Part shown: positions 20,919-35,476 of the stretch, in pieces
How the letters are laid out: every line of letters begins with the position of its first letter
How positions within the stretch are numbered: the first letter of the stretch is position 1
NCBI GenBank assembly: GCA_041228285.1
Contig: CP166133.1
Location: 1,853,380 to 1,893,379, forward strand
From: Neisseriaceae bacterium CLB_ANTARCTIC_008
Lineage (GTDB): Bacteria; Pseudomonadota; Gammaproteobacteria; Burkholderiales; Neisseriaceae
Direction of reading: 5' to 3'
DNA length: 40,000 nucleotides
Notes under the pieces: generated by a model
What the model was told of the DNA's origin: nothing
The model's database searches: none
The model's input: only the letters and a program-made list of their open reading frames with translations
Program-made: the position numbers and the translations under genes

Positions 20919-21380
20919 TCATCTGCTATTCAAGTCAATTTTTATCTGTAAAAGCTGCTGTAAAAGCTCATCACAAGCAGCCATCACCAATACACTCTCA
21001 GTGCGCGTCACCGACTCGCCTCCGTTGCCATGCGGGTCTACGGCTTCAATCACTGCTTTTGATACACCACCCATGTAGGCAGATAACCGGTTAGCTGCTG
21101 CCATAAGGTTGTCCGTTGTGATTTCTCCATTAAACTTTGGGATATCAACCAGCATGAGGCCTTGGCGTGCAGCCATCTCGGTTAAAATTAAATGCTTTGA
21201 ATCACGATCCTGCAGGTCTTGGCTGTCTTCAATGTTCAGTTTGTGGCCATTTTGATTTAGCTTATTGTTTACAATCACAGGGCTTTTGCCCGTCATGTGT
21301 GCAAAGCCAGTAATGCCCCCGCGGACATTCAACGCAGCATCCTTATGTGCTCGGTAAAGACTTTCGTAGTCGTCACTCAT
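20919..21380 (-). CDS. CII-like regulatory protein (CP76-type)
   Basis: Sits after cro. …GGITGFAHMTGKSPVIVNNKLNQNGHKLNIEDSQDL…ILTEMAARQG resembles Phage_CP76 regulators as I recall them. Confidence 0.45.
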   Translation of the reverse strand: MSDDYESLYRAHKDAALNVRGGITGFAHMTGKSPVIVNNKLNQNGHKLNIEDSQDLQDRDSKHLILTEMAARQGLMLVDIPKFNGEITTDNLMAAANRLSAYMGGVSKAVIEAVDPHGNGGESVTRTESVLVMAACDELLQQLLQIKIDLNSR

Positions 21381-21437
21381 GACATTTCTCTTTCTTCAAA
21401 CGTGTTATTGCGTGGATGGGTTGTTAAGCTGTCGATG

Positions 21438-21668
21438 TTAGGCAGCAATCAGCTCAGGCCAATTTTCATGCCAATCATGAGGGCGCAACATTTTTCGGTT
21501 AATTAATCCGCTTGTTTCAGCCTCAATTCGTACACAAAGCTTTGTACCAAGTGGCCGCTTAGTTGATGCGGATTTTCGGAGGTAATTAATGCTCGTCTGA
21601 GTATTTCGCTCAAACTCCTCTCTCCCTGCCTGGCTTAAAGAATTCAAAAATTTTATTAACTCTTCCAT
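21438..21668 (-). CDS. Cro/YdaS-like HTH protein
   Basis: Divergent from the repressor; AGGAAA RBS before the ATG at 21668; …SINYLRKSASTKRPLGTKLCVRIEAETSGLINRKMLRP…. Confidence 0.65.
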   Translation of the reverse strand: MEELIKFLNSLSQAGREEFERNTQTSINYLRKSASTKRPLGTKLCVRIEAETSGLINRKMLRPHDWHENWPELIAA

Positions 21669-21794
21669 GGTAATTTTCCTATTACTAATTGGTAATATTA
21701 TTACCCAAAACAAAATCAAGATCAACACCTTTTGGTGTTTTACCTTTTTAGTAATTATTGAGAGAATAACGACTGCATCTTAAGAGGCTACTAA
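21669..21794. promoter_or_regulatory. immunity control region (OR-type operators, divergent promoters)
   Basis: Palindromes ATTACT-aatt-GGTAAT (21681-21696) and AACACC-tttt-GGTGTT (21724-21739); TTTACC-N5-AGTAAT (21739-21755). On the minus strand, TTGATC, ~16-17 nt, then TAATAA/TAATAT reads towards cro. Confidence 0.6.
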
Positions 21795-22490
21795 ATGACA
21801 ACGGCAGATATTCGCAGAGCGAATTTAAAAAAATGGATTGATGAAAAGCACAATGGCACACAGGCCAGCTTTGTTGCGCTAACTGGCATTAACCAGGGCG
21901 AGCTATCAGGGCTTCTAAATAAAAAGTCCTTCGGAGAGAAAAAAGCTAGATCCCTAGAAAAGATTGCGGGCATGCCTGAAATGTGGCTAGACACCCCAGT
22001 GATAACAAAGGAGTCTAACGTCAGCGATATCGGCCGCCCTCACCTATGGAGTAGCAACGACCCATTACCTGAAGAGGATTATGTCTTTTTGCCATTCTAC
22101 AAAGACATTGCCCTTTCTGCCGGCACGGGCTGCTTTTCTACGGATGACCACAACGGCTATAAGCTGCCATTTGCTAAATCAACACTAAGACGCCATAACG
22201 TTCAATACGACCAAGCTGTATGTGTAACCGTGAGCGGCAACTCAATGGAGCCAGTCCTACCAGACGGCACGACCGTTAGCGTGAACATGGCCGACAAACG
22301 CATCGTGGACGGCAAGATTTACGCTATTTGCCAAGGTGACATGCTTCGAGTGAAGCGCCTTTATGCTCTACCTGGTGGGAAAGTCCGCATTAGTAGCTAT
22401 AACGGTGATGAACACCCAGACGAAATCGAGCCTACTGGTGATGTCGAGATCATTGGCCGTGTATTTAATTGGTCAGTCATGGACGTGTAG
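21795..22490 (+). CDS. cI-like repressor (N-terminal HTH, C-terminal S24/LexA-type autopeptidase)
   Basis: AAGAGG RBS; Ala-Gly cleavage-site candidate in ALSAGTG; catalytic Ser in SGNSMEP and Lys in LRVKRL. Confidence 0.9.
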   Translation: MTTADIRRANLKKWIDEKHNGTQASFVALTGINQGELSGLLNKKSFGEKKARSLEKIAGMPEMWLDTPVITKESNVSDIGRPHLWSSNDPLPEEDYVFLPFYKDIALSAGTGCFSTDDHNGYKLPFAKSTLRRHNVQYDQAVCVTVSGNSMEPVLPDGTTVSVNMADKRIVDGKIYAICQGDMLRVKRLYALPGGKVRISSYNGDEHPDEIEPTGDVEIIGRVFNWSVMDV

Positions 22491-22558
22491 AACTCAAACG
22501 ATATGTAGGAGCTATACAGGGCCGACAATCCCAACTGAGCACTTTAAACAACAGAAAA

Positions 22559-22583
22559 CCCCTCTTTTGAGGGGTGTTTTTTT
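22559..22583 (+). terminator. intrinsic terminator after the repressor gene
   Basis: CCCCTC-tttt-GAGGGG followed by TGTTTTTTT. Confidence 0.75.
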
Positions 22584-22786
22584 GCTTTGGCCATTGTCAT
22601 CTATTCATATCACATATTGAATTATTATTATGATAGTATTGTTTCGGATTTTAGGTTACTCGTCACTCTACAAGGCAAAGAATGAATAATAAACTCAGGA
22701 GAGTGATGGTACTGTCTCAGGCTGGAGGTGTGCCTGAGGGTGTTCTTGGAGACTAACTTCTAACTATTTAAAATAGAGGCTGCAAG

Positions 22787-23278
22787 TTGAATATTAAAAC
22801 CATAACCGATCAAGATTTAGACGATCTTATTAAATGCCATAAAAGGGCAACTAAAAATGCCAGGGATATCCCTGATAAGCGGCATATAAAAAAAGACTTT
22901 TCTTTAGTCGCCAGCAAATACCCTGAGTATAAGTTCACTCTCTACATTAGGCATAGCCTTGAGATGGAGGATGATTATACTGTGGGCCTAAGGGTTAGCC
23001 TACCCAAAGAAAAAAATCCCTTAACTCTAGTAAGATTTAATGGTAGTAGCCATGGGCATAAAAATGTACTAGAGGATGAGTCATTTCCTTTTAATGAACA
23101 TATTCACAAAGCAACTGAGCGCTATATCAAAGCGAAGCTAAAAGCTGAGGGATACGCCCTAGTCACAGATCAATACACCACTGTTGAAGGAGCCTTGCTT
23201 CACGCCTGTGAAATATGCAATATTACAGGTATACTTGCTAATACAATATCAGCGGCCAATCAGGACTTGTTTAACTAA
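22787..23278 (+). CDS. hypothetical protein (163 aa), first gene of a two-gene cassette
   Basis: TTG start with AGAGG RBS 7 nt upstream; AT-rich; His-rich centre (RFNGSSHGHKNV…NEHIHKATE); stop 1 nt before the next ATG. Confidence 0.55.
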   Translation: MNIKTITDQDLDDLIKCHKRATKNARDIPDKRHIKKDFSLVASKYPEYKFTLYIRHSLEMEDDYTVGLRVSLPKEKNPLTLVRFNGSSHGHKNVLEDESFPFNEHIHKATERYIKAKLKAEGYALVTDQYTTVEGALLHACEICNITGILANTISAANQDLFN

Positions 23279-23279
23279 A

Positions 23280-24056
23280 ATGATTACAGCAGAACACATC
23301 GAAAGAATATTGTGCACCAGCTTTTGCACAGATATTCAAACCAGAGAACGAAAAGATGGATGGATACAAGTATCCACCCCTTTCGTTGGTCGCGATGGTG
23401 ATATCTACAACATTTTCTTAAAACAAAAAAATGGTATTGTTAGAGTATCTGACCGCGGTTCAACCATTATGCGGCTAAGTTATGAGACAGACTTAAAGAC
23501 TTTAACTGGTGCACGACAAGAAACTTTGATTCAAATTACGGATGAACAAGGTGTCTTATATGATGATGGTGAGATTTACACAGAAACGATTGCGAGCAAT
23601 ATAGGCAGTGCTGTTTTTAAACTTGGACAAGCACTAACAAGAGTGTCAGATATTGGCCTCTGGTCCGCAGGAAGAATTAAGTCAACATTTTACGAAGACT
23701 TAGAATGCACACTTGATGATATTCTAGACAAGCATAATATTCATAAGGATTATTGTATCCCAGACCAGGTTAATTCAAGCAACTATCCTATTGACTATTA
23801 CCTACAAGGGGAAAGTAGCAAACCATTGTATTTATTTGGTGTACCCGACTCATCAAAAGCAAGGCTAACAACAATTGTTTTAAAACAATTAGAAGTATGG
23901 AATCAAAATTTTGATTCTATCGTTGTCTTAAGCAAGATGGATGATATACCAAAATCTGATTTAGCTAGACTTATGGATGCTGCCAATGACATAGTCCCCT
24001 CAATAAGTGACACAGCTTCTATCCACAAGAAAATTAATCACCGACTATCTGCATAA
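23280..24056 (+). CDS. DUF1828/DUF1829-like protein (258 aa)
   Basis: The track ORF is trimmed to the ATG at 23280, which is translationally coupled to the upstream gene. N-terminus …GWIQVSTPFVGRDGDIYNIFLKQKNGIVRVSDRGSTIMRLSY… resembles DUF1828. The C-terminal half is DUF1829-like (from memory, unverified). Confidence 0.55.
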   Translation: MITAEHIERILCTSFCTDIQTRERKDGWIQVSTPFVGRDGDIYNIFLKQKNGIVRVSDRGSTIMRLSYETDLKTLTGARQETLIQITDEQGVLYDDGEIYTETIASNIGSAVFKLGQALTRVSDIGLWSAGRIKSTFYEDLECTLDDILDKHNIHKDYCIPDQVNSSNYPIDYYLQGESSKPLYLFGVPDSSKARLTTIVLKQLEVWNQNFDSIVVLSKMDDIPKSDLARLMDAANDIVPSISDTASIHKKINHRLSA

Positions 24057-24058
24057 AT

Positions 24059-24084
24059 CCCCCTCACTCGAGGGGGATTTTTTT
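24059..24084 (+). terminator. intrinsic terminator after the cassette
   Basis: CCCCCTC-actc-GAGGGGG followed by A-T7. Confidence 0.8.
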
Positions 24085-24252
24085 GCCCACAGAAAAGCCC
24101 CAGGAGTGTGTGAGTCCTGAGGCTGCTGGGTCTCTCTCTAAGCTAGTTGCTAATTGCGGCTTAACCTAGATGTAAAATTATACCTATCAAATATCATATG
24201 TAAATAAGCCATTTATACTAGGGCCATGACACAACGACTCAAAAGCCTACTA

Positions 24253-24302
24253 AATGAAATACCCCAACAACTAAGGTCACAAAGTTATTGGGGTAAGTGG
24301 GC
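24253..24302 (+). repeat. hairpin-family copy 1 (AATGAAATACCCCA…TGGGGTAAGTGGGC)
   Basis: Stem CCCCAACAAC/GTTATTGGGG (one mismatch), 12-nt loop, conserved flanks. Confidence 0.5.
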
Positions 24303-24550
24303 CGCTAGGCATTATGGCAATGAAACAGCCCATAGTTACTATACTCTTTCCCTTGAAATGAATAACTACTCATGAAGTATTAAATCTTTTGTATAACCCA
24401 AAAAAAGACCCAAACACCAATCAGGGTGCCTGGGCATCAAGGAAATATAATGAATAAACATAGGACTGCAAAAACACGGTCAAGTTTCAAGAAGTAATCA
24501 TTTTTTATAAGTCACCTCCCTGCTCAGCCTCTATGTAATTTTCTCAAGTC

Positions 24551-24595
24551 AATAAAATACCCCAGCGTTAGCGAGACACGCTGGGGTAAGTGGGC
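24551..24595 (+). repeat. hairpin-family copy 2 (AATAAAATACCCCA…TGGGGTAAGTGGGC)
   Basis: Stem CCCCAGCG/CGCTGGGG (perfect), 11-nt loop. Flanks match copy 1 at 13/14 (5') and 14/14 (3'). Confidence 0.5.
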
Positions 24596-24797
24596 TCTCT
24601 CTGAGTCATACTTTAAAACTCAACCCAATATTAGCTTATCATTCCAAAAGCATTAAAATCAACAAAATTTAAAATAACCAATTGATATATTTAGATATGT
24701 ATCTTTTATGTCGTAAATATATTTACAACATCTATGCATAAATTCAGTACGGAACCTCTTATAAAGATCGTATGCATGAATTAATTAAATCACTTAA

Positions 24798-24821
24798 GAC
24801 CACTGAGAGGTGGCCTTTTTT
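24798..24821 (+). terminator. intrinsic terminator in a non-coding region
   Basis: GACCAC-tgagag-GTGGCC (one A:C mismatch) followed by T6. Confidence 0.5.
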
Positions 24822-24914
24822 CTATATGTTGTAAAAATATCACCTAAAAATTACCATTTATATATCTTTTTAAATCAAATAATTACCAAATAAATTACTT
24901 TCACCTCCATTTAA

Positions 24915-24957
24915 ATTACCTTTTGGTATTGATAAATCAATTACCGTTTAGTAATAT
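24915..24957 (+). promoter_or_regulatory. pL-type promoter with two repressor operators
   Basis: ATTACC-tttt-GGTATT (24915-24930) and ATTACC-gttt-AGTAAT (24940-24955) share the half-site/N4 architecture of the cI/cro operators. They overlap -35 TTGATA (24929-24934) and -10 TAATAT (24952-24957), which are 17 bp apart. Confidence 0.55.
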
Positions 24958-25284
24958 AACCCCATCGAATCAGCGCAGCACTGGCAGGACAGACTGGTTC
25001 ATCGGTCTTTAACAGTTACATACGCAATAGCCAGCCTTCCACTTGAAAGCATCCAAGTGAGTACATACAAAGGTAATACTTTGGGGTAAGTCGAACAAAT
25101 GGCTATGAACACGTATTCAACGTGGCGACAGTGGACGTACTCAAATACAGGGGACGGAGACACGGCAAAGATGAATAGCAGCCAAGGCGAAACTTGGACG
25201 GTGCCAGTGCCGCGACTGGATCGGCTTATGCGAAAACGAACCTACAAATGGTCGATTTGGCTAGATATAAAAGCAGTAGCATAT

Positions 25285-25382
25285 GGGACTGTAGCTCAGA
25301 TGGTAGAGGGGCTTATGAGGGTTTGCCAGGGGTGGCTTTTCCCTCTCTTGCACGGTCGCAGGTTCGAGTCCTGCCAGTCCCT
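25285..25382 (+). ncRNA. tRNA-like element with a non-canonical central domain (not a callable tRNA)
   Basis: Acceptor GGGACTG (25285-91) pairs with CAGTCCC (25375-81). D-arm GCTC-AGATGGTA-GAG(G). T-arm GCAGG-TTCGAGT-CCTGC (25358-74). The 48 nt between them form GAGGG/CCCTC plus GCCA-GGGG-TGGC instead of an anticodon arm. Confidence 0.5.
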
Positions 25383-25400
25383 ACCAAGACTTTAAATTGA

Positions 25401-25428
25401 AGCACTCAGAACAGAGTGCTTTTGTGTG
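25401..25428 (+). terminator. intrinsic terminator after the tRNA-like element
   Basis: AGCACTC-agaaca-GAGTGCT followed by TTTGTGTG. Confidence 0.7.
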
Positions 25429-25433
25429 AGGTT

Positions 25434-25949
25434 TTATTTATAGGCGCTTCCATGAGCCATATAGTGGTCCTTCACTATTTGGTGAAAGCAATTATGCAAC
25501 TCATAGTAATCGCTTTGTTTAATTTGAAATATAACTTTTCTTTTTGAGAGAGTAAGAGTAACCATATCAGTGTTATCAAATTTTATCGGCTCAAAATTCT
25601 CATACAGATAGAGCATTACTACGTTCACCTCATCCTCAGACAGGTCAAGAAAAACTTTCTTCGCCTGAGCTTCTGCTGACTTGATGCGCTTTTTTTCGAT
25701 GCGGGAAGATAGTGATTTCCCTAACCAACTAAAAGCAAGAACGGTTAAGTCAACCAACGCATAAGATATAGCGAAGGTTAGGGCCAGCGTAGTTAATGAC
25801 CCTGACCCAAACGGAAGGCTTCGTGGCACCAGATCGAGCCATGACTCTGGAGCAAGAAGGTAGAGAACTAGAGTTAATAAAATCGTGTACATCATTTTCC
25901 CCAAGGGGACTTTATTAAAAATAATTTCAATTAGCCTAATAAAATCCAT
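25434..25949 (-). CDS. membrane protein, SieB-like (superinfection exclusion candidate)
   Basis: Two N-terminal TM helices, then a soluble domain; ~170 aa, AT-rich, opposite in orientation to the surrounding operon. Size, topology and location are as for lambdoid SieB. Sequence assignment unverified. Confidence 0.45.
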   Translation of the reverse strand: MDFIRLIEIIFNKVPLGKMMYTILLTLVLYLLAPESWLDLVPRSLPFGSGSLTTLALTFAISYALVDLTVLAFSWLGKSLSSRIEKKRIKSAEAQAKKVFLDLSEDEVNVVMLYLYENFEPIKFDNTDMVTLTLSKRKVIFQIKQSDYYELHNCFHQIVKDHYMAHGSAYK

Positions 25950-26076
25950 AGTTGCAATTTCTCTAGTTGTGTGGGGATGGCTAATTATGCCTTAAATTTC
26001 GTTGTGTGGGGACATGACGAAAAACTATCGGACTCAGAGCCGACAAGTCCAGTAAAAGGCTGGCATCAATGATTAA

Positions 26077-26100
26077 AGCCCATTACGGTGGGCTTTTGTG
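26077..26100 (+). terminator. intrinsic terminator
   Basis: AGCCCA-ttacgg-TGGGCT followed by TTTGTGTGA; the tail is identical to that of the 25401 terminator. Confidence 0.6.
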
Positions 26101-26154
26101 TGAAGTTTTCAACGAAAGTAATCTAAGACAAATCACCCAAAAGGAGCAGCATCC

Positions 26155-26406
26155 ATGAGCACTAAGAAATCACCCCTCACTTTAAAGCTAACCGGCGCCG
26201 AAATTAAAAACCTACGTCGCAGACTTGGCCTTAACCAAGCAGCCTTCTGGTCACCTGTTGGCGTAACCCAGTCAGGTGGCAGCCGCTACGAATCAGGGCG
26301 AAACATCCCTACCCCAACAGCCATGATGATTCATCTTGTTTACTTGGCTAAAACCCCTGCTGACGACCTTCAGTCACACAAGAAGGTCTGGGCATTGGCA
26401 AAGTAG
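26155..26406 (+). CDS. small XRE/YiaG-like HTH protein (83 aa)
   Basis: AAGGAG RBS; IKNLRRRLGLNQAAFWSPVGVTQSGGSRYESGRNIPTPTAMMIHLV. Confidence 0.7.
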   Translation: MSTKKSPLTLKLTGAEIKNLRRRLGLNQAAFWSPVGVTQSGGSRYESGRNIPTPTAMMIHLVYLAKTPADDLQSHKKVWALAK

Positions 26407-26555
26407 TGAAAATTGACTGGCCATCATCTGGTGGCCTCACGCATGGGCATTCAATCTTTTAATGGAATATCTATTAAGTCCGTTGCGTAATCGAATGAGT
26501 GCCCAGCCGTGAGTTTTAGACTTTTTAGAATAAACACCAGTACTCGCAAATTATT

Positions 26556-26804
26556 TTATGGAGTAGATAAGTACTGAATGACGGCATCGGCATCCAAAAA
26601 GGAAACATCGATTATTTGGCAATAGTTTTTAGATTCAATATGAGCGCCGACCAACTCTTTCACAGCGGAAGCTGAATAATTAGTATCTATATGCCATATA
26701 GACCCTTGCACCTTTTGGATGGCACCTAGACCGCCAATGGCCCTCTCTAAGGAGGGCAAGCATTTGATGGCACATGGATAGCACGCTATAACGAAGCTAT
26801 ACAT
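26556..26804 (-). CDS. hypothetical protein (82 aa)
   Basis: ORF only; opposite orientation; AT-rich surroundings. Confidence 0.35.
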   Translation of the reverse strand: MYSFVIACYPCAIKCLPSLERAIGGLGAIQKVQGSIWHIDTNYSASAVKELVGAHIESKNYCQIIDVSFLDADAVIQYLSTP

Positions 26805-27122
26805 CTAGACACCTTCTAGTGGTATGTGGTTTGAAGTTTTTATTGTTCTAAATGATTATATTAAAATCATTAAAACTGAGTACTTCTTTTAGTCATTAAG
26901 TATAATCATATTATATATATCATTTATAAACAAATATATATAACCATTAGATCGATCAAGAAATTAAACCATTCCAAAGTAGTTTTTATACCCAAACCGA
27001 TTTGACATTTGTACAACAAGCTCACAAAAAACTATATTAAATATTTGATTTTTAATGAACTTGTTATAATTTAGAGTAAACTGACTTTGCGCATTACGCA
27101 CTTTATGCGCAGTAGTGCTTCT

Positions 27123-27160
27123 GGCCATCCAAGCTAATCCAACTTGGGTGGCCTTTTTTT
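27123..27160 (+). terminator. strong intrinsic terminator with no upstream plus-strand ORF
   Basis: 11-bp stem GGCCATCCAAG/CTTGGGTGGCC (one G:T pair), 9-nt loop, T7. Confidence 0.75.
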
Positions 27161-27173
27161 ATGGGTGAACGAT

Positions 27174-27419
27174 ATGACTAAACGAATCTTCTACTGGCTC
27201 GGCCCTCTTCTCCTGTTCTTTGTATGGGGCTTCATAGACCACGCAGTGCCAGCCACGCCACCGCCAATACCAACGCAAAGCCCAGTCGGTGAAATCCTCA
27301 CAGCGGTCGATACAGAGCTGAACTATCGAAGCCTGTACCGCAATGTGACTGTCGATCAGCTGATGATGGGAAATATCTGTATTGAAATTAATGATAACGA
27401 ATGCGAGGTGTACCGATGA
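27174..27419 (+). CDS. small membrane/secreted protein (81 aa)
   Basis: ATG at 27174; N-terminal hydrophobic segment IFYWLGPLLLFFVWGFI; stop overlaps the next ATG (ATGA). Confidence 0.5.
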   Translation: MTKRIFYWLGPLLLFFVWGFIDHAVPATPPPIPTQSPVGEILTAVDTELNYRSLYRNVTVDQLMMGNICIEINDNECEVYR

Positions 27420-27679
27420 AACAACCAACAATTGAATTGAGCGTGAATGCTGTGCTGAATATGGTGCCAAAGGATGGCCTGCCGCTCTTACAGGATTATG
27501 CGCGAAAGAAGCGAACACCAGATCAGGTAATGCTTCAGATGGAAGCCAAAAAACATATTGATGAAATACCAATGAGTGTCCGTGAGTTTCTAGCATCAAT
27601 TGATGGTCCCCACTGGTTGCCAAATAACGGGCGAGACTGGGTTCCGACTTTCACGTCAAGAAATGATGGGAGAGAGTGA
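27416..27679 (+). CDS. hypothetical protein (87 aa)
   Basis: Translationally coupled at both ends. Confidence 0.5.
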   Translation: MKQPTIELSVNAVLNMVPKDGLPLLQDYARKKRTPDQVMLQMEAKKHIDEIPMSVREFLASIDGPHWLPNNGRDWVPTFTSRNDGRE

Positions 27680-34031: not shown

Positions 34032-34355
34032 ATGATTACTTTTTCACTAGAAGAGGCATCCCCCATTCTTGGTGCGCATCCTGAGACATTACGCAGAAAG
34101 TGTAAATCAGGTGAGATTAGAGCATTTAAATCTGGTCGCGCCTGGCGAATTGCCAAAGAAGCTCTTGCAGATTACATCAAAGACAAAGAAAATGAACGCT
34201 TGCAGGAAGTGCGGGCGGAAGGGAGTAAGAAATGCCAATCCGATTACGTAACGGAATTTACTATATCGACATTGTTACCTCGTCAGGGAACCGTATTAGA
34301 CGATCTTCTGGCACCAGCGACAAGAAAAAGGCCCAAGAGCTGCACGATAAACTAA
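34032..34355 (+). CDS. xis: excisionase-family HTH protein
   Basis: LEEASPILGAHPETLRRKCKSGEIRAFKSGRAWRIAKEALADYI (MerR/excisionase-type HTH); GGAG RBS; its 3' end overlaps int by 124 nt in another frame. Confidence 0.6.
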   Translation: MITFSLEEASPILGAHPETLRRKCKSGEIRAFKSGRAWRIAKEALADYIKDKENERLQEVRAEGSKKCQSDYVTEFTISTLLPRQGTVLDDLLAPATRKRPKSCTIN

Positions 34356-35347
34356 AGCATGAACTATGGGCCGTCGAAAGACTGGGCGAAAAACCTAAAA
34401 GAACATGGGATGAAGCCTGTGTGCGCTTTCTTCAAGAAAAAGCACATAAAAAAAGCCTTGAAGACGATAAGCAAAAAATGCGCTTATTGGTACAGCTTCG
34501 AGGAATGCTTTTAACTGATATTACCCGTGATTTTATTATGGGTACTGTATCGAAACTCAGCTGTGGAAACTCTACCAAAAACCGCTACCTCACGTTGATC
34601 CGTACAGTCTTAAATCTGTGCGCTGGCGAATGGGAATGGATTGATAGAGCGCCCAAGTTGACTTTATACAAAGAGCCTAAAAAGCGGATTCGCTGGATTA
34701 CTCGCGATGAGGCTAACAGGCTTATATCCGTTTTACACCGTGTCTATGCTGATTTAGCCGAGTTTAGCTTTATGACCGGCCTACGCCAGTCTAATGCCCT
34801 TACTTTGGAATGGTCTCAAGTCGATTTAGAAAGACAGGTCGCATGGATCCACCCAGACCAGGCCAAAGCAGGAAAACCGATAGGTGTGCCGCTGAACGAA
34901 AACGCCATGAATGTTCTACGGCGCCGGTTTGCCATTCGAAAAATGCACCAAATATTTGTCTCAAACCTACCTAGAGCTAGCCAGCTCAAAATGGACTTTA
35001 CTAGATATGTCTTTGTAAGCGACATAACTAAACGACCATTGACCAGCATTAGCTCAGAAATCTGGAAGGCGGCACTCGATGAGGCAGGTATTAAAGATTT
35101 TCGTTGGCACGACATTAGGCACACCTGGGCAAGCTGGTTAGTCCAAAGTGGCGTTGGCTTACTTGAGTTAAAAGAAATGGGTGGCTGGGAAAGTGTCGAG
35201 ATGGTCCAGAAGTATGCTCACTTAGCACCACAACATTTACACAAAAACGCTGTTCTATTAGAGACCCCACGAGCCATGGGTTTGGCACAAGATGTCACAA
35301 ATCTGGCACACGTAAAAAATCCCCTGCTACCTTGGACAGTAAACTAG
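34232..35347 (+). CDS. int: tyrosine integrase
   Basis: N-terminal RNGIYYIDI…RRSSGTSDKKKA; catalytic residues in MTGLRQSN, WHDIRHTWASW and VQKYAHL; adjacent to a tRNA 3' end. Confidence 0.92.
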   Translation: MPIRLRNGIYYIDIVTSSGNRIRRSSGTSDKKKAQELHDKLKHELWAVERLGEKPKRTWDEACVRFLQEKAHKKSLEDDKQKMRLLVQLRGMLLTDITRDFIMGTVSKLSCGNSTKNRYLTLIRTVLNLCAGEWEWIDRAPKLTLYKEPKKRIRWITRDEANRLISVLHRVYADLAEFSFMTGLRQSNALTLEWSQVDLERQVAWIHPDQAKAGKPIGVPLNENAMNVLRRRFAIRKMHQIFVSNLPRASQLKMDFTRYVFVSDITKRPLTSISSEIWKAALDEAGIKDFRWHDIRHTWASWLVQSGVGLLELKEMGGWESVEMVQKYAHLAPQHLHKNAVLLETPRAMGLAQDVTNLAHVKNPLLPWTVN

Positions 35348-35385: not shown

Positions 35386-35476
35386 TGGCGGAGGCGGTGA
35401 GATTCGAACTCACGGAAGGGTATAAGCCTTCGACGGTTTTCAAGACCGTTGCATTCAACCGCTCTGCCACGCCTCC
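35386..35476 (-). tRNA. tRNA-Ser (anticodon UGA), CCA encoded
   Basis: Reverse complement GGAGGCGTGGCAGAGCGGTTGAATGCAACGGTCTTGAAAACCGTCGAAGGCTTATACCCTTCCGTGAGTTCGAATCTCACCGCCTCCGCCA. Anticodon stem-loop ACGGT-CTTGAAA-ACCGT; long variable arm; 91 nt. Confidence 0.92.

Follow-up and report, generated by a model that had tools for sequence, protein, structure and literature searches.

A DUF6978-DUF1828 gene pair in the rexAB position of a Neisseriaceae prophage, a candidate uncharacterised anti-phage cassette

Phage lambda carries rexA and rexB as two-gene lysogen cargo downstream of its repressor gene cI, co-oriented with cI and placed before OL/pL, and RexB is a polytopic membrane protein. The present work concerns a two-gene cassette that occupies the same slot in a lambdoid prophage on the chromosome of Neisseriaceae bacterium CLB008, within an analysed stretch of 40,000 nt, hereafter the window (contig CP166133.1, positions 1,853,380 to 1,893,379 of the forward strand; coordinates below are positions in the window unless another locus is named). 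The first gene, A (locus tag AB8Q18_08570), encodes a DUF6978 protein, and the second, B, a DUF1828 protein. In contrast to the shared position, the gene products are dissimilar: neither A nor B matches RexA or RexB in Pfam or PHROGs, and, in the window, a strong terminator separates the pair from cI. A and B are soluble proteins that lack transmembrane segments and a secretion signal (the maximum KD19 values of the window proteins A and B are 1.28 and 0.77), and with no segment reaching transmembrane level, a RexB-like membrane mechanism is therefore excluded. The reading that we favour, at about even odds, is that the cassette is a lysogen-expressed, cytoplasmic anti-phage module, biochemically unrelated to RexAB.

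In PADLOC-DB, the window proteins match solely PDC-M24A and PDC-M24B, that is, both A (weakly) and B are assigned to one candidate system alone. PDCs are unvalidated candidates defined by 'guilt by embedding' within known defence loci (PMC12881386); four of the eight PDC/HEC candidates that were tested protected E. coli, and PDC-M24 is not among the eight (PMC12881386). Like the pair described here, PDC-M24 consists of a protein of ~150-165 aa followed by one of ~255 aa, encoded adjacently, on the same strand and in the order A then B, and a location in or next to restriction-modification loci, the PDC-defining criterion, is also seen for the pair. PDC-M24 differs in that A of the window is a weak match and that B is matched in its DUF1828 half only (residues 19-147 of 255). 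Since six of 60 relatives of A match PDC-M24A (PDLC04538; best E = 1.2e-12), the window pair is read as a divergent branch of PDC-M24, and it would belong to a widespread mobile module in which a DUF6978 gene is followed by a DUF1828 gene.

Two further lines of published work touch the DUF1828 family. In the DefensePredictor tables, two E. coli DUF1828 proteins of 250 aa, WP_000968517.1 and WP_000968518.1, are listed as predicted novel defence genes with log-odds of 5.6-6.3, and the accompanying HHpred table assigns them DUF1828 and DUF1829, the latter of the PDDEXK clan (PMC13092281); neither accession appears in the searched text of the other supplementary tables, including those of validated systems. 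The same material describes DS-6, or HipAD, as an experimentally validated defence system composed of a HipA-like kinase and a DUF3037-DUF1829 protein, and HHpred assigns DUF1829 to DS-6B as well (PMC13092281). HipAD resembles the A-B pair in having two genes, and HipAD-domain genes occur in the same prophage hotspot, directly downstream of A-B in a Simonsiella-type prophage (locus L177, see below). The A-B pair, however, has no kinase, and the B family, its C-terminal half included, has no similarity to the DUF3037/DUF1829 protein of that prophage (hhalign probability 0.3%), so a kinship of this kind was rejected. No literature on the function of DUF6978, DUF1828 or PDC-M24 was found, and the names of the phages led to no functional study either.

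Anatomy of the cassette

The features of the cassette and its flanks are as follows.

22787-23278, plus strand: gene A, 163 aa, DUF6978; the TTG is the first possible start, and the N-termini of homologues align from residue 1
22775-22779, plus strand: AGAGG ribosome-binding site for gene A, 7 nt upstream of the TTG
23280-24056, plus strand: gene B, 258 aa, DUF1828; ATG start, homologues align from residue 1-2
22558-22585, plus strand: intrinsic terminator after cI, 7-bp stem with five GC pairs and a T7 run; also scored on the minus strand
24060-24086, plus strand: intrinsic terminator after B, stem 24060-24076, T-run to 24086
22604-22631, plus strand: candidate cassette promoter, TTCATA-16-TATTAT, 9/12 matches; weak
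22716-22722 and 22732-22738, plus strand: CTCAGGC / GCCTGAG arms of a leader hairpin (loop of 9 nt), which the centroid fold contains

The TTG start and ribosome-binding site of A, and the coordinates and spacing of the two genes, are as the first-pass annotation of this DNA had given them; a single nucleotide separates the stop codon of A (TAA, 23276-23278) from the ATG of B. Its statements that the cassette is more AT-rich than the repressor gene and that intrinsic terminators bracket it also hold. A and B have GC contents of 0.384 and 0.369, respectively, compared with 0.481 for cI and 0.433 for the window. The terminator after cI has its stem at 22558-22575 and a T-run that extends to 22585; in the region as a whole, 16 terminator-like sites are present where 4.3 are expected. 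The two cassette terminators are identical at 22 of 27 positions (CCCCTCTTTTGAGGGGTGTTTTTTTGC and CCCCTCACTCGAGGGGGATTTTTTTGC), so that near copies of one terminator stand on both sides of a 1.5-kb insert. Such an anatomy is classic for a phage 'moron', and the near-duplication may be the trace of a moron insertion event. The cassette would then be a moron, a self-contained, AT-rich, terminator-flanked insert whose two genes are translationally coupled, on the lysogeny side of a lambdoid prophage, in the rexAB position.

The hairpin-containing leader that had been proposed upstream of A is borne out in part: the hairpin exists, with its arms shifted to the positions given above, but the leader folds no better than shuffled sequences (z = -0.41), and a structured regulatory RNA was rejected on this ground. 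In an Rfam scan of 21000-27500 the sole match is a tRNA-like element that lies outside the leader.

A separate observation concerns the opposite strand. The best promoter-like site of the region (24204-24177, minus strand; TTTACA-16-TATAAT, 11/12 matches) aims into the 3' end of the cassette, and may give rise to an antisense or small RNA whose end would be the hairpin at 24076-24060.

Recurrence of the pair, its slot and its neighbours

Loci were gathered through B from 80 species-representative genomes and 50 IMG/VR contigs and, independently, through A from 39 IMG/VR contigs. Among the genome loci with enough upstream sequence, 72 of 75 have a homologue of A upstream of B on the same strand, and of the three loci that do not, one retains a 20-residue remnant. 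Conversely, B follows A in 37 of the 38 viral loci gathered through A, the sole exception being cut by the contig end, and the gene downstream of members of the A family found by profile search is again DUF1828. The stop codon of A and the start codon of B overlap or lie no more than 10 nt apart in 116 of 123 loci, with an ATGA overlap in 57, and the pairwise distances of A and B are correlated (Mantel r = 0.77, a value that none of 500 permutations reached). The first-pass annotation had raised the possibility that the two genes do not co-occur in other genomes; quite clearly they do, and the pairing is near-obligate and of fixed order. In a Burkholderiales metagenome-assembled genome (L028, 3891-6695), A and B lie ~1.6 kb apart, probably through an insertion into the pair.

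Small overlapping genes in a fixed order, which move as a unit into many unrelated contexts, would also be expected of a toxin-antitoxin-like addiction module that stabilises its carrier prophage, operon or islet by post-segregational killing and has no action on incoming phage. ParDE and transposases are found among the neighbours of the pair, and the DUF1829-bearing partner in HipAD is proposed to be antitoxin-like (PMC13092281). However, Pfam, NCBIfam and PADLOC reveal in A and B no helix-turn-helix (HTH) or other typical antitoxin DNA-binding domain and no known toxin family, both proteins have enzyme-like clusters of invariant residues, and the strong preference for the cI slot together with embedding in restriction-modification operons suits defence at least equally well. 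We consider a pure addiction module unlikely; since many toxin-antitoxin modules are themselves defence systems, this explanation overlaps with that of an anti-phage module.

The slot behind the repressor gene recurs in phages. For IMG/VR loci with at least 1.7 kb of upstream sequence, a Peptidase_S24 (S24) repressor gene lies upstream of A, on the same strand and within 1.6 kb, in 42 of 45 cases, and in 25 of 27 when the loci are dereplicated by clustering B at 90% identity. Nine of these loci have no more than 40 nt between repressor gene and A; in a further 19 the distance is 41-400 nt, and in the remaining 14 it is 401-1600 nt. All ten repressors that were checked are genuine Peptidase_S24 proteins, most of them with an HTH domain. 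Clustered at 40% identity, the repressors upstream of the pair form 21 groups, and B proteins that are nearly identical adjoin different repressors; the cassette therefore moves between immunity regions. In phage contigs the pair almost always follows the repressor gene, a habit of which we found no published description.

The annotation of three cultured phages of Pseudomonas aeruginosa, 5371, 5399 and phita81A, gives the order cro | cI -> small open reading frame (ORF) -> A -> B. In prophages of Simonsiella muelleri, which belongs to the same family as the host of the window and whose B protein is 55% identical, the order is Cro | cI -> A (14-nt gap) -> B -> variable cargo. One Simonsiella-type prophage (L177, 7827-9355) carries HipA_2 and DUF3037 genes directly downstream of A-B, while its sister prophages L178 and L179 have other cargo there (unknown genes and DUF4325, or an IS605 element), and the position downstream of A-B is therefore a variable cargo hotspot. 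In many relatives the gap after cI is 7-35 nt, which makes Rex-like co-transcription with the repressor gene likely in them. The first-pass assignment of the cassette to a lysogeny-cargo slot thus generalises from the window to Pseudomonas phages, Simonsiella prophages and the IMG/VR loci. Neither a megablast search of 50,697 phage records with the 3-kb region nor a tblastn search of plasmids with B returned a match. Phage PACT201, which has a distant match to B, was not used, as its annotation is too fragmented.

Such constant placement behind the repressor gene, often 7-35 nt downstream in the 42 viral loci, might also be taken to mean that the pair assists the lysogeny or induction circuit of the phage itself, for example in DNA processing or repressor modulation. 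Against this, at least 21 unrelated repressor families are involved and near-identical B proteins occur beside different cI alleles, and most lambdoid phages lack the pair, which matches only three to four of the 50,697 phage records. Furthermore, 50 of the 58 species-representative loci have no upstream repressor, and many lie by restriction-modification, parAB or metabolic genes. We give such an accessory role only a slim chance.

Outside phage contigs the neighbourhood changes, with a repressor upstream of the pair in only eight of the 58 species-representative genome loci. When the two genes upstream of A are tallied over 60 genomes, the commonest families are an MmeI-type methyltransferase and Peptidase_S24 (seven each) and N6_N4 methylase and HTH_3 (five each), with Eco57I (four), type I N6_Mtase (three) and Methylase_S (two) also represented. 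PADLOC, applied to 150 neighbours from 25 loci, reports type IIG and type III restriction-modification genes, DrmMI-like and mad2-like methylases, ThsB and PDC-S11. In Vitellibacter sp. q18 (L184, 4984-14786) the genes are part of a type I operon with the order hsdM, a remnant of A, B, hsdS, a 1079-aa unknown protein and hsdR; the A remnant has an internal deletion that leaves the first ~30 and the last few residues. Other copies adjoin ParDE, a DruA-domain gene and transposases, or an insertion sequence (IS) element, or follow parAB. This distribution is that expected for a small mobile defence or toxin-antitoxin-type module, and not that of a housekeeping or core phage gene. In the gene-neighbourhood survey suggested by the first-pass annotation, the prophage immunity slot and restriction-modification neighbours recur, and many genome copies sit among metabolic genes. 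No housekeeping or structural function emerged for either protein.

The restriction-modification contexts invite comparison with guards of the PrrC/RloC type. The position of B and a decayed A between hsdM and hsdS of Vitellibacter is reminiscent of such guards, as are other loci in which the pair lies downstream of, and co-oriented with, MmeI-type or type I methylase genes; on the other hand, there is no sequence or domain similarity, and most copies of the pair lie outside restriction-modification operons. A guard role like that of PrrC/RloC is suggested here by analogy only.

A prophage moron of foreign base composition, often close to restriction-modification systems, could also be counter-defence or host-fitness cargo, i.e., an anti-restriction or lysogenic-conversion factor. 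Co-oriented embedding in bacterial restriction-modification operons is, however, the place of guards and defence genes rather than of inhibitors; both proteins are cytoplasmic; and their sole PADLOC matches are to a candidate defence system. This explanation appears very improbable to us. Taken with the pairing, the slot, PDC-M24 and the restriction-modification and HipAD neighbours, the evidence supports the first-pass reading of the cassette as a candidate uncharacterised prophage defence pair.

The two proteins and the proposed mechanism

Protein A matches Pfam DUF6978 (PF22398) over residues 6-137 with 35.5 bits (cut-off 29.6; E = 1.5e-8), as do 45 of 60 relatives. An exhaustive HMMER search gave 619 hits, compared with a word-index protein search that returned A alone. 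Across 60 homologues the invariant residues are K19, R55, R83, N85, G86, H91, N93, H105, H107 and A109-T-E-R-Y113, and H89 and E96 are conserved in at least 90%. The AlphaFold model of A (predicted local distance difference test, pLDDT, 92.3; predicted template modelling score, pTM, 0.87) begins with a helix, which is followed by a meander of four strands and by short strands that bear the conserved motif. The His-rich core that had been noted earlier as a possible metal or nuclease site is real, with H91, N93, H105 and H107 invariant, but it has no HNH or fold match. In the model, two HxH dyads on neighbouring strands, together with an Asn and a Glu, look like a mononuclear metal site. A His-Me finger or HNH nuclease is not supported, since no such family hidden Markov model (HMM) in Pfam, no PDB sequence and no fold in the PDB or BFVD matches and HNH motifs are not typically spaced as HxHxN...HxH; nor is there fold support for reading the HxH motifs as those of a cupin or HIT protein. 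Some homologues of A are longer (199-262 aa), not through domain fusion but through low-complexity extensions, which probably result from mis-called starts, and the idea that A and the N-terminal domain of B are paralogues was likewise dismissed (hhalign probability 2%). A profile search of the A family against PDB sequences returned chance hits only, and an NCBIfam scan of A and B gave nothing useful.

Protein B matches Pfam DUF1828 (PF08861) over residues 33-122 with 68.1 bits (cut-off 22; E = 8e-19), and all 52 relatives of B do so too. Its AlphaFold model (pLDDT 92.5) consists of the N-terminal DUF1828 domain, two long helices and a C-terminal alpha/beta domain. The residues C12, C16, P34, D39-G40-D41, D58, S67-Y68, G77, R79, F137, D140, D172, G187 and K251 are invariant. 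In the DUF1828 domain, C12 and C16 form a CxxxC motif in helix 1, and D39-G-D41, D58 and D71 constitute an acidic set. The long helices bear S135-T-F-Y-E-D-L141, of which the conserved E139/D140 lie in the helix preceding the strand opened by P170-x-D172; the C-terminal domain further contains L183-x-L-F-G187 in the next strand, K193, D227, R230 and K251.

The best Foldseek matches of the B model in the PDB are NucS/EndoMS, Can2, VC1899, SfsA, Card1 and BbvCI, all with restriction-endonuclease-like folds. Two-domain PD-(D/E)xK nucleases among them (NucS/EndoMS, 2vld; Can2, 8bao; Card1, 6xl1; VC1899, 1xmx; SfsA, 4dav) share with B a general plan in which a binding or sensor domain at the N-terminus precedes an alpha/beta domain of nuclease type, but B has neither a CARF nor a NucS-type N-terminal domain, and it lacks (D/E)xK. 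A profile search of the B family against PDB sequences returned chance hits only. For want of (D/E)xK, B can be no more than a non-canonical member of the restriction-endonuclease-like fold class, and its role may be to bind nucleic acid rather than to cut it. A DUF1829 or nuclease reading of the C-terminal half is weakly indicated by fold hits that are poor but mutually consistent.

We infer an anti-phage role, a nucleic-acid target and expression in the lysogen for the pair, and the following mechanism is proposed. A and B would be expressed in the lysogen and, upon infection, act as one unit in the cytoplasm on phage or host nucleic acid, and the pair would thereby shield the lysogen, and hence the prophage, from other phages. 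B would supply nucleic-acid recognition or cleavage through its restriction-endonuclease-like C-terminal domain and the acidic DGD/D/D cluster of DUF1828, while A would be a His-cluster metalloprotein (H89, H91, N93, E96, H105, H107) serving either as catalytic partner or as sensor, regulator or trigger. This particular division of labour between A and B is doubtful, well short of an even chance.

Several observations weigh against an anti-phage module of this description. In the window, 297 nt separate cI from A and this gap contains the intrinsic terminator, so that Rex-like co-transcription with cI is not demonstrated there; no convincing cassette promoter was found, promoter-like sites being as numerous as expected from shuffled sequences, and together the terminator after cI and the lack of a convincing promoter leave lysogen expression unproven. 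The match of A to PDC-M24A is weak (E = 2.5e-3 and 6.8e-3, residues 1-93), and that of B to PDC-M24B (E = 4.5e-20 and 1e-16) covers the N-terminal half only (residues 19-147 and 23-155). Foldseek finds no neighbour of the A model in the PDB or BFVD (best E 0.2-0.6), so that the chemistry of A is a guess, and the Foldseek matches of B are weak (E at least 1e-3, TM-score at most 0.37). The canonical (D/E)xK is absent from β3 of B, the strand L183-V188 with consensus L-x-L-F-G-V, and the nearest conserved lysine is K193 in the following helix. The first-pass annotation had described B as DUF1829-like; DUF1829 (PF08862, PDDEXK clan) gives no HMMER hit at E ≤ 1 in B or any of its 52 relatives, and the DUF1828 part alone is matched. 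Finally, many genome loci of the pair sit alone among ordinary metabolic genes, and no phage test of any member of the DUF6978-DUF1828 family was found in the literature.

Prophage surroundings and implications

The elements of the immunity region around the cassette are listed below.

21438-21728, minus strand: cro-like gene, divergent from cI; phrog_35 transcriptional repressor (E = 2e-5), weak YdaS match; the true start is probably the ATG near 21668
21795-22490, plus strand: cI-like repressor gene; Peptidase_S24 (E = 6.5e-21), phrog_4 (E = 4e-44)
21669-21756, no strand: OR-like operator cluster, six WATTACY heptamers in the cro-cI divergent region
24849-24956, no strand: OL-like operator cluster, six WATTACY sites; overlaps a plus-strand promoter-like site at 24929-24957

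The cI-like repressor combines an N-terminal DNA-binding part with an S24 peptidase domain. On the minus strand, the prophage encodes NinB, NinG, a replication-region gene, a cII-like gene (20919-21380) and the cro-like gene, and on the plus strand to the right of the cassette follow Erf, SSB, a DNA methyltransferase and an integrase (34232-35347) whose gene abuts tRNA-Ser at 35386-35476. From this layout, the map is therefore the mirror image of the lambda order cro | cI - rexAB - pL ... int - att. WATTACY sites number 45 in the window, compared with 26.7 expected, and are clustered at the two positions listed; the clusters are likely the OR and OL operator sets of the cI-like repressor. A first operator guess, ATTACC-N6-GGTAAT, was rejected for lack of enrichment. 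The earlier placement of the cassette exactly between the cI-like gene and pL-type operators is correct as to order, but the OL-like cluster lies ~770 nt past the cassette terminator and is not adjacent to it.

Further features of this part of the prophage are recorded here for their own sake. The 770-nt spacer between the cassette and the OL-like operators contains a hairpin unit, AATRAAATACCCCA ... TGGGGTAAGTGGGC, that occurs twice (24253-24302 and 24551-24595, ~295 nt apart), and among these units lie a 49-aa ORF (24226-24375) and a minus-strand terminator (24435-24408). A tRNA-like element at 25285-25382 (plus strand) reaches 38 bits with the Rfam tRNA model, whose gathering score is 29; its acceptor, D and T arms are intact, 42 nt stand in place of the 17-nt anticodon-arm segment, and it receives no ARAGORN call. 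It is located inside a 98-aa ORF (25099-25395) just downstream of the putative pL. A SieB-like superinfection-exclusion gene (25434-25949, minus strand; PF14163, E = 2e-6; phrog_6399) runs on the strand opposite to the early-left operon and is a second exclusion-type gene close to the immunity region. Between it and the early-left genes lies a gene for an 83-aa RsaL-like HTH regulator (26155-26406, plus strand; PF22495, E = 5e-22).

The pair does not form a wholly new category, as a related candidate is in PADLOC and DUF1828 proteins have been flagged by a language model. What is predicted here is its kind, namely lysogen-expressed exclusion cargo of a repressor operon, in which one protein has no detectable structural relatives. 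In its full form, to which we assign a probability somewhat short of even, the proposal is that the pair is a widespread, hitherto uncharacterised functional analogue of RexAB and among the commonest cargoes of temperate-phage repressor operons in Proteobacteria, in which a His-cluster metalloenzyme of new fold, A, is combined with a non-canonical nuclease-like B and the two act by a defence mechanism that no characterised system represents. The cultured Pseudomonas aeruginosa phages 5371, 5399 and phita81A, which carry the pair in the slot, offer a ready experimental handle, and co-oriented genes within ~1.6 kb downstream of an S24 repressor gene could provide a search rule for new systems. 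If the pair defends lysogens, it adds an entry of uncharacterised mechanism to the defence catalogue, with one component that has no Foldseek relatives, and, if this is true, the slot after the repressor gene would be a general defence-cargo hotspot across many phage lineages.

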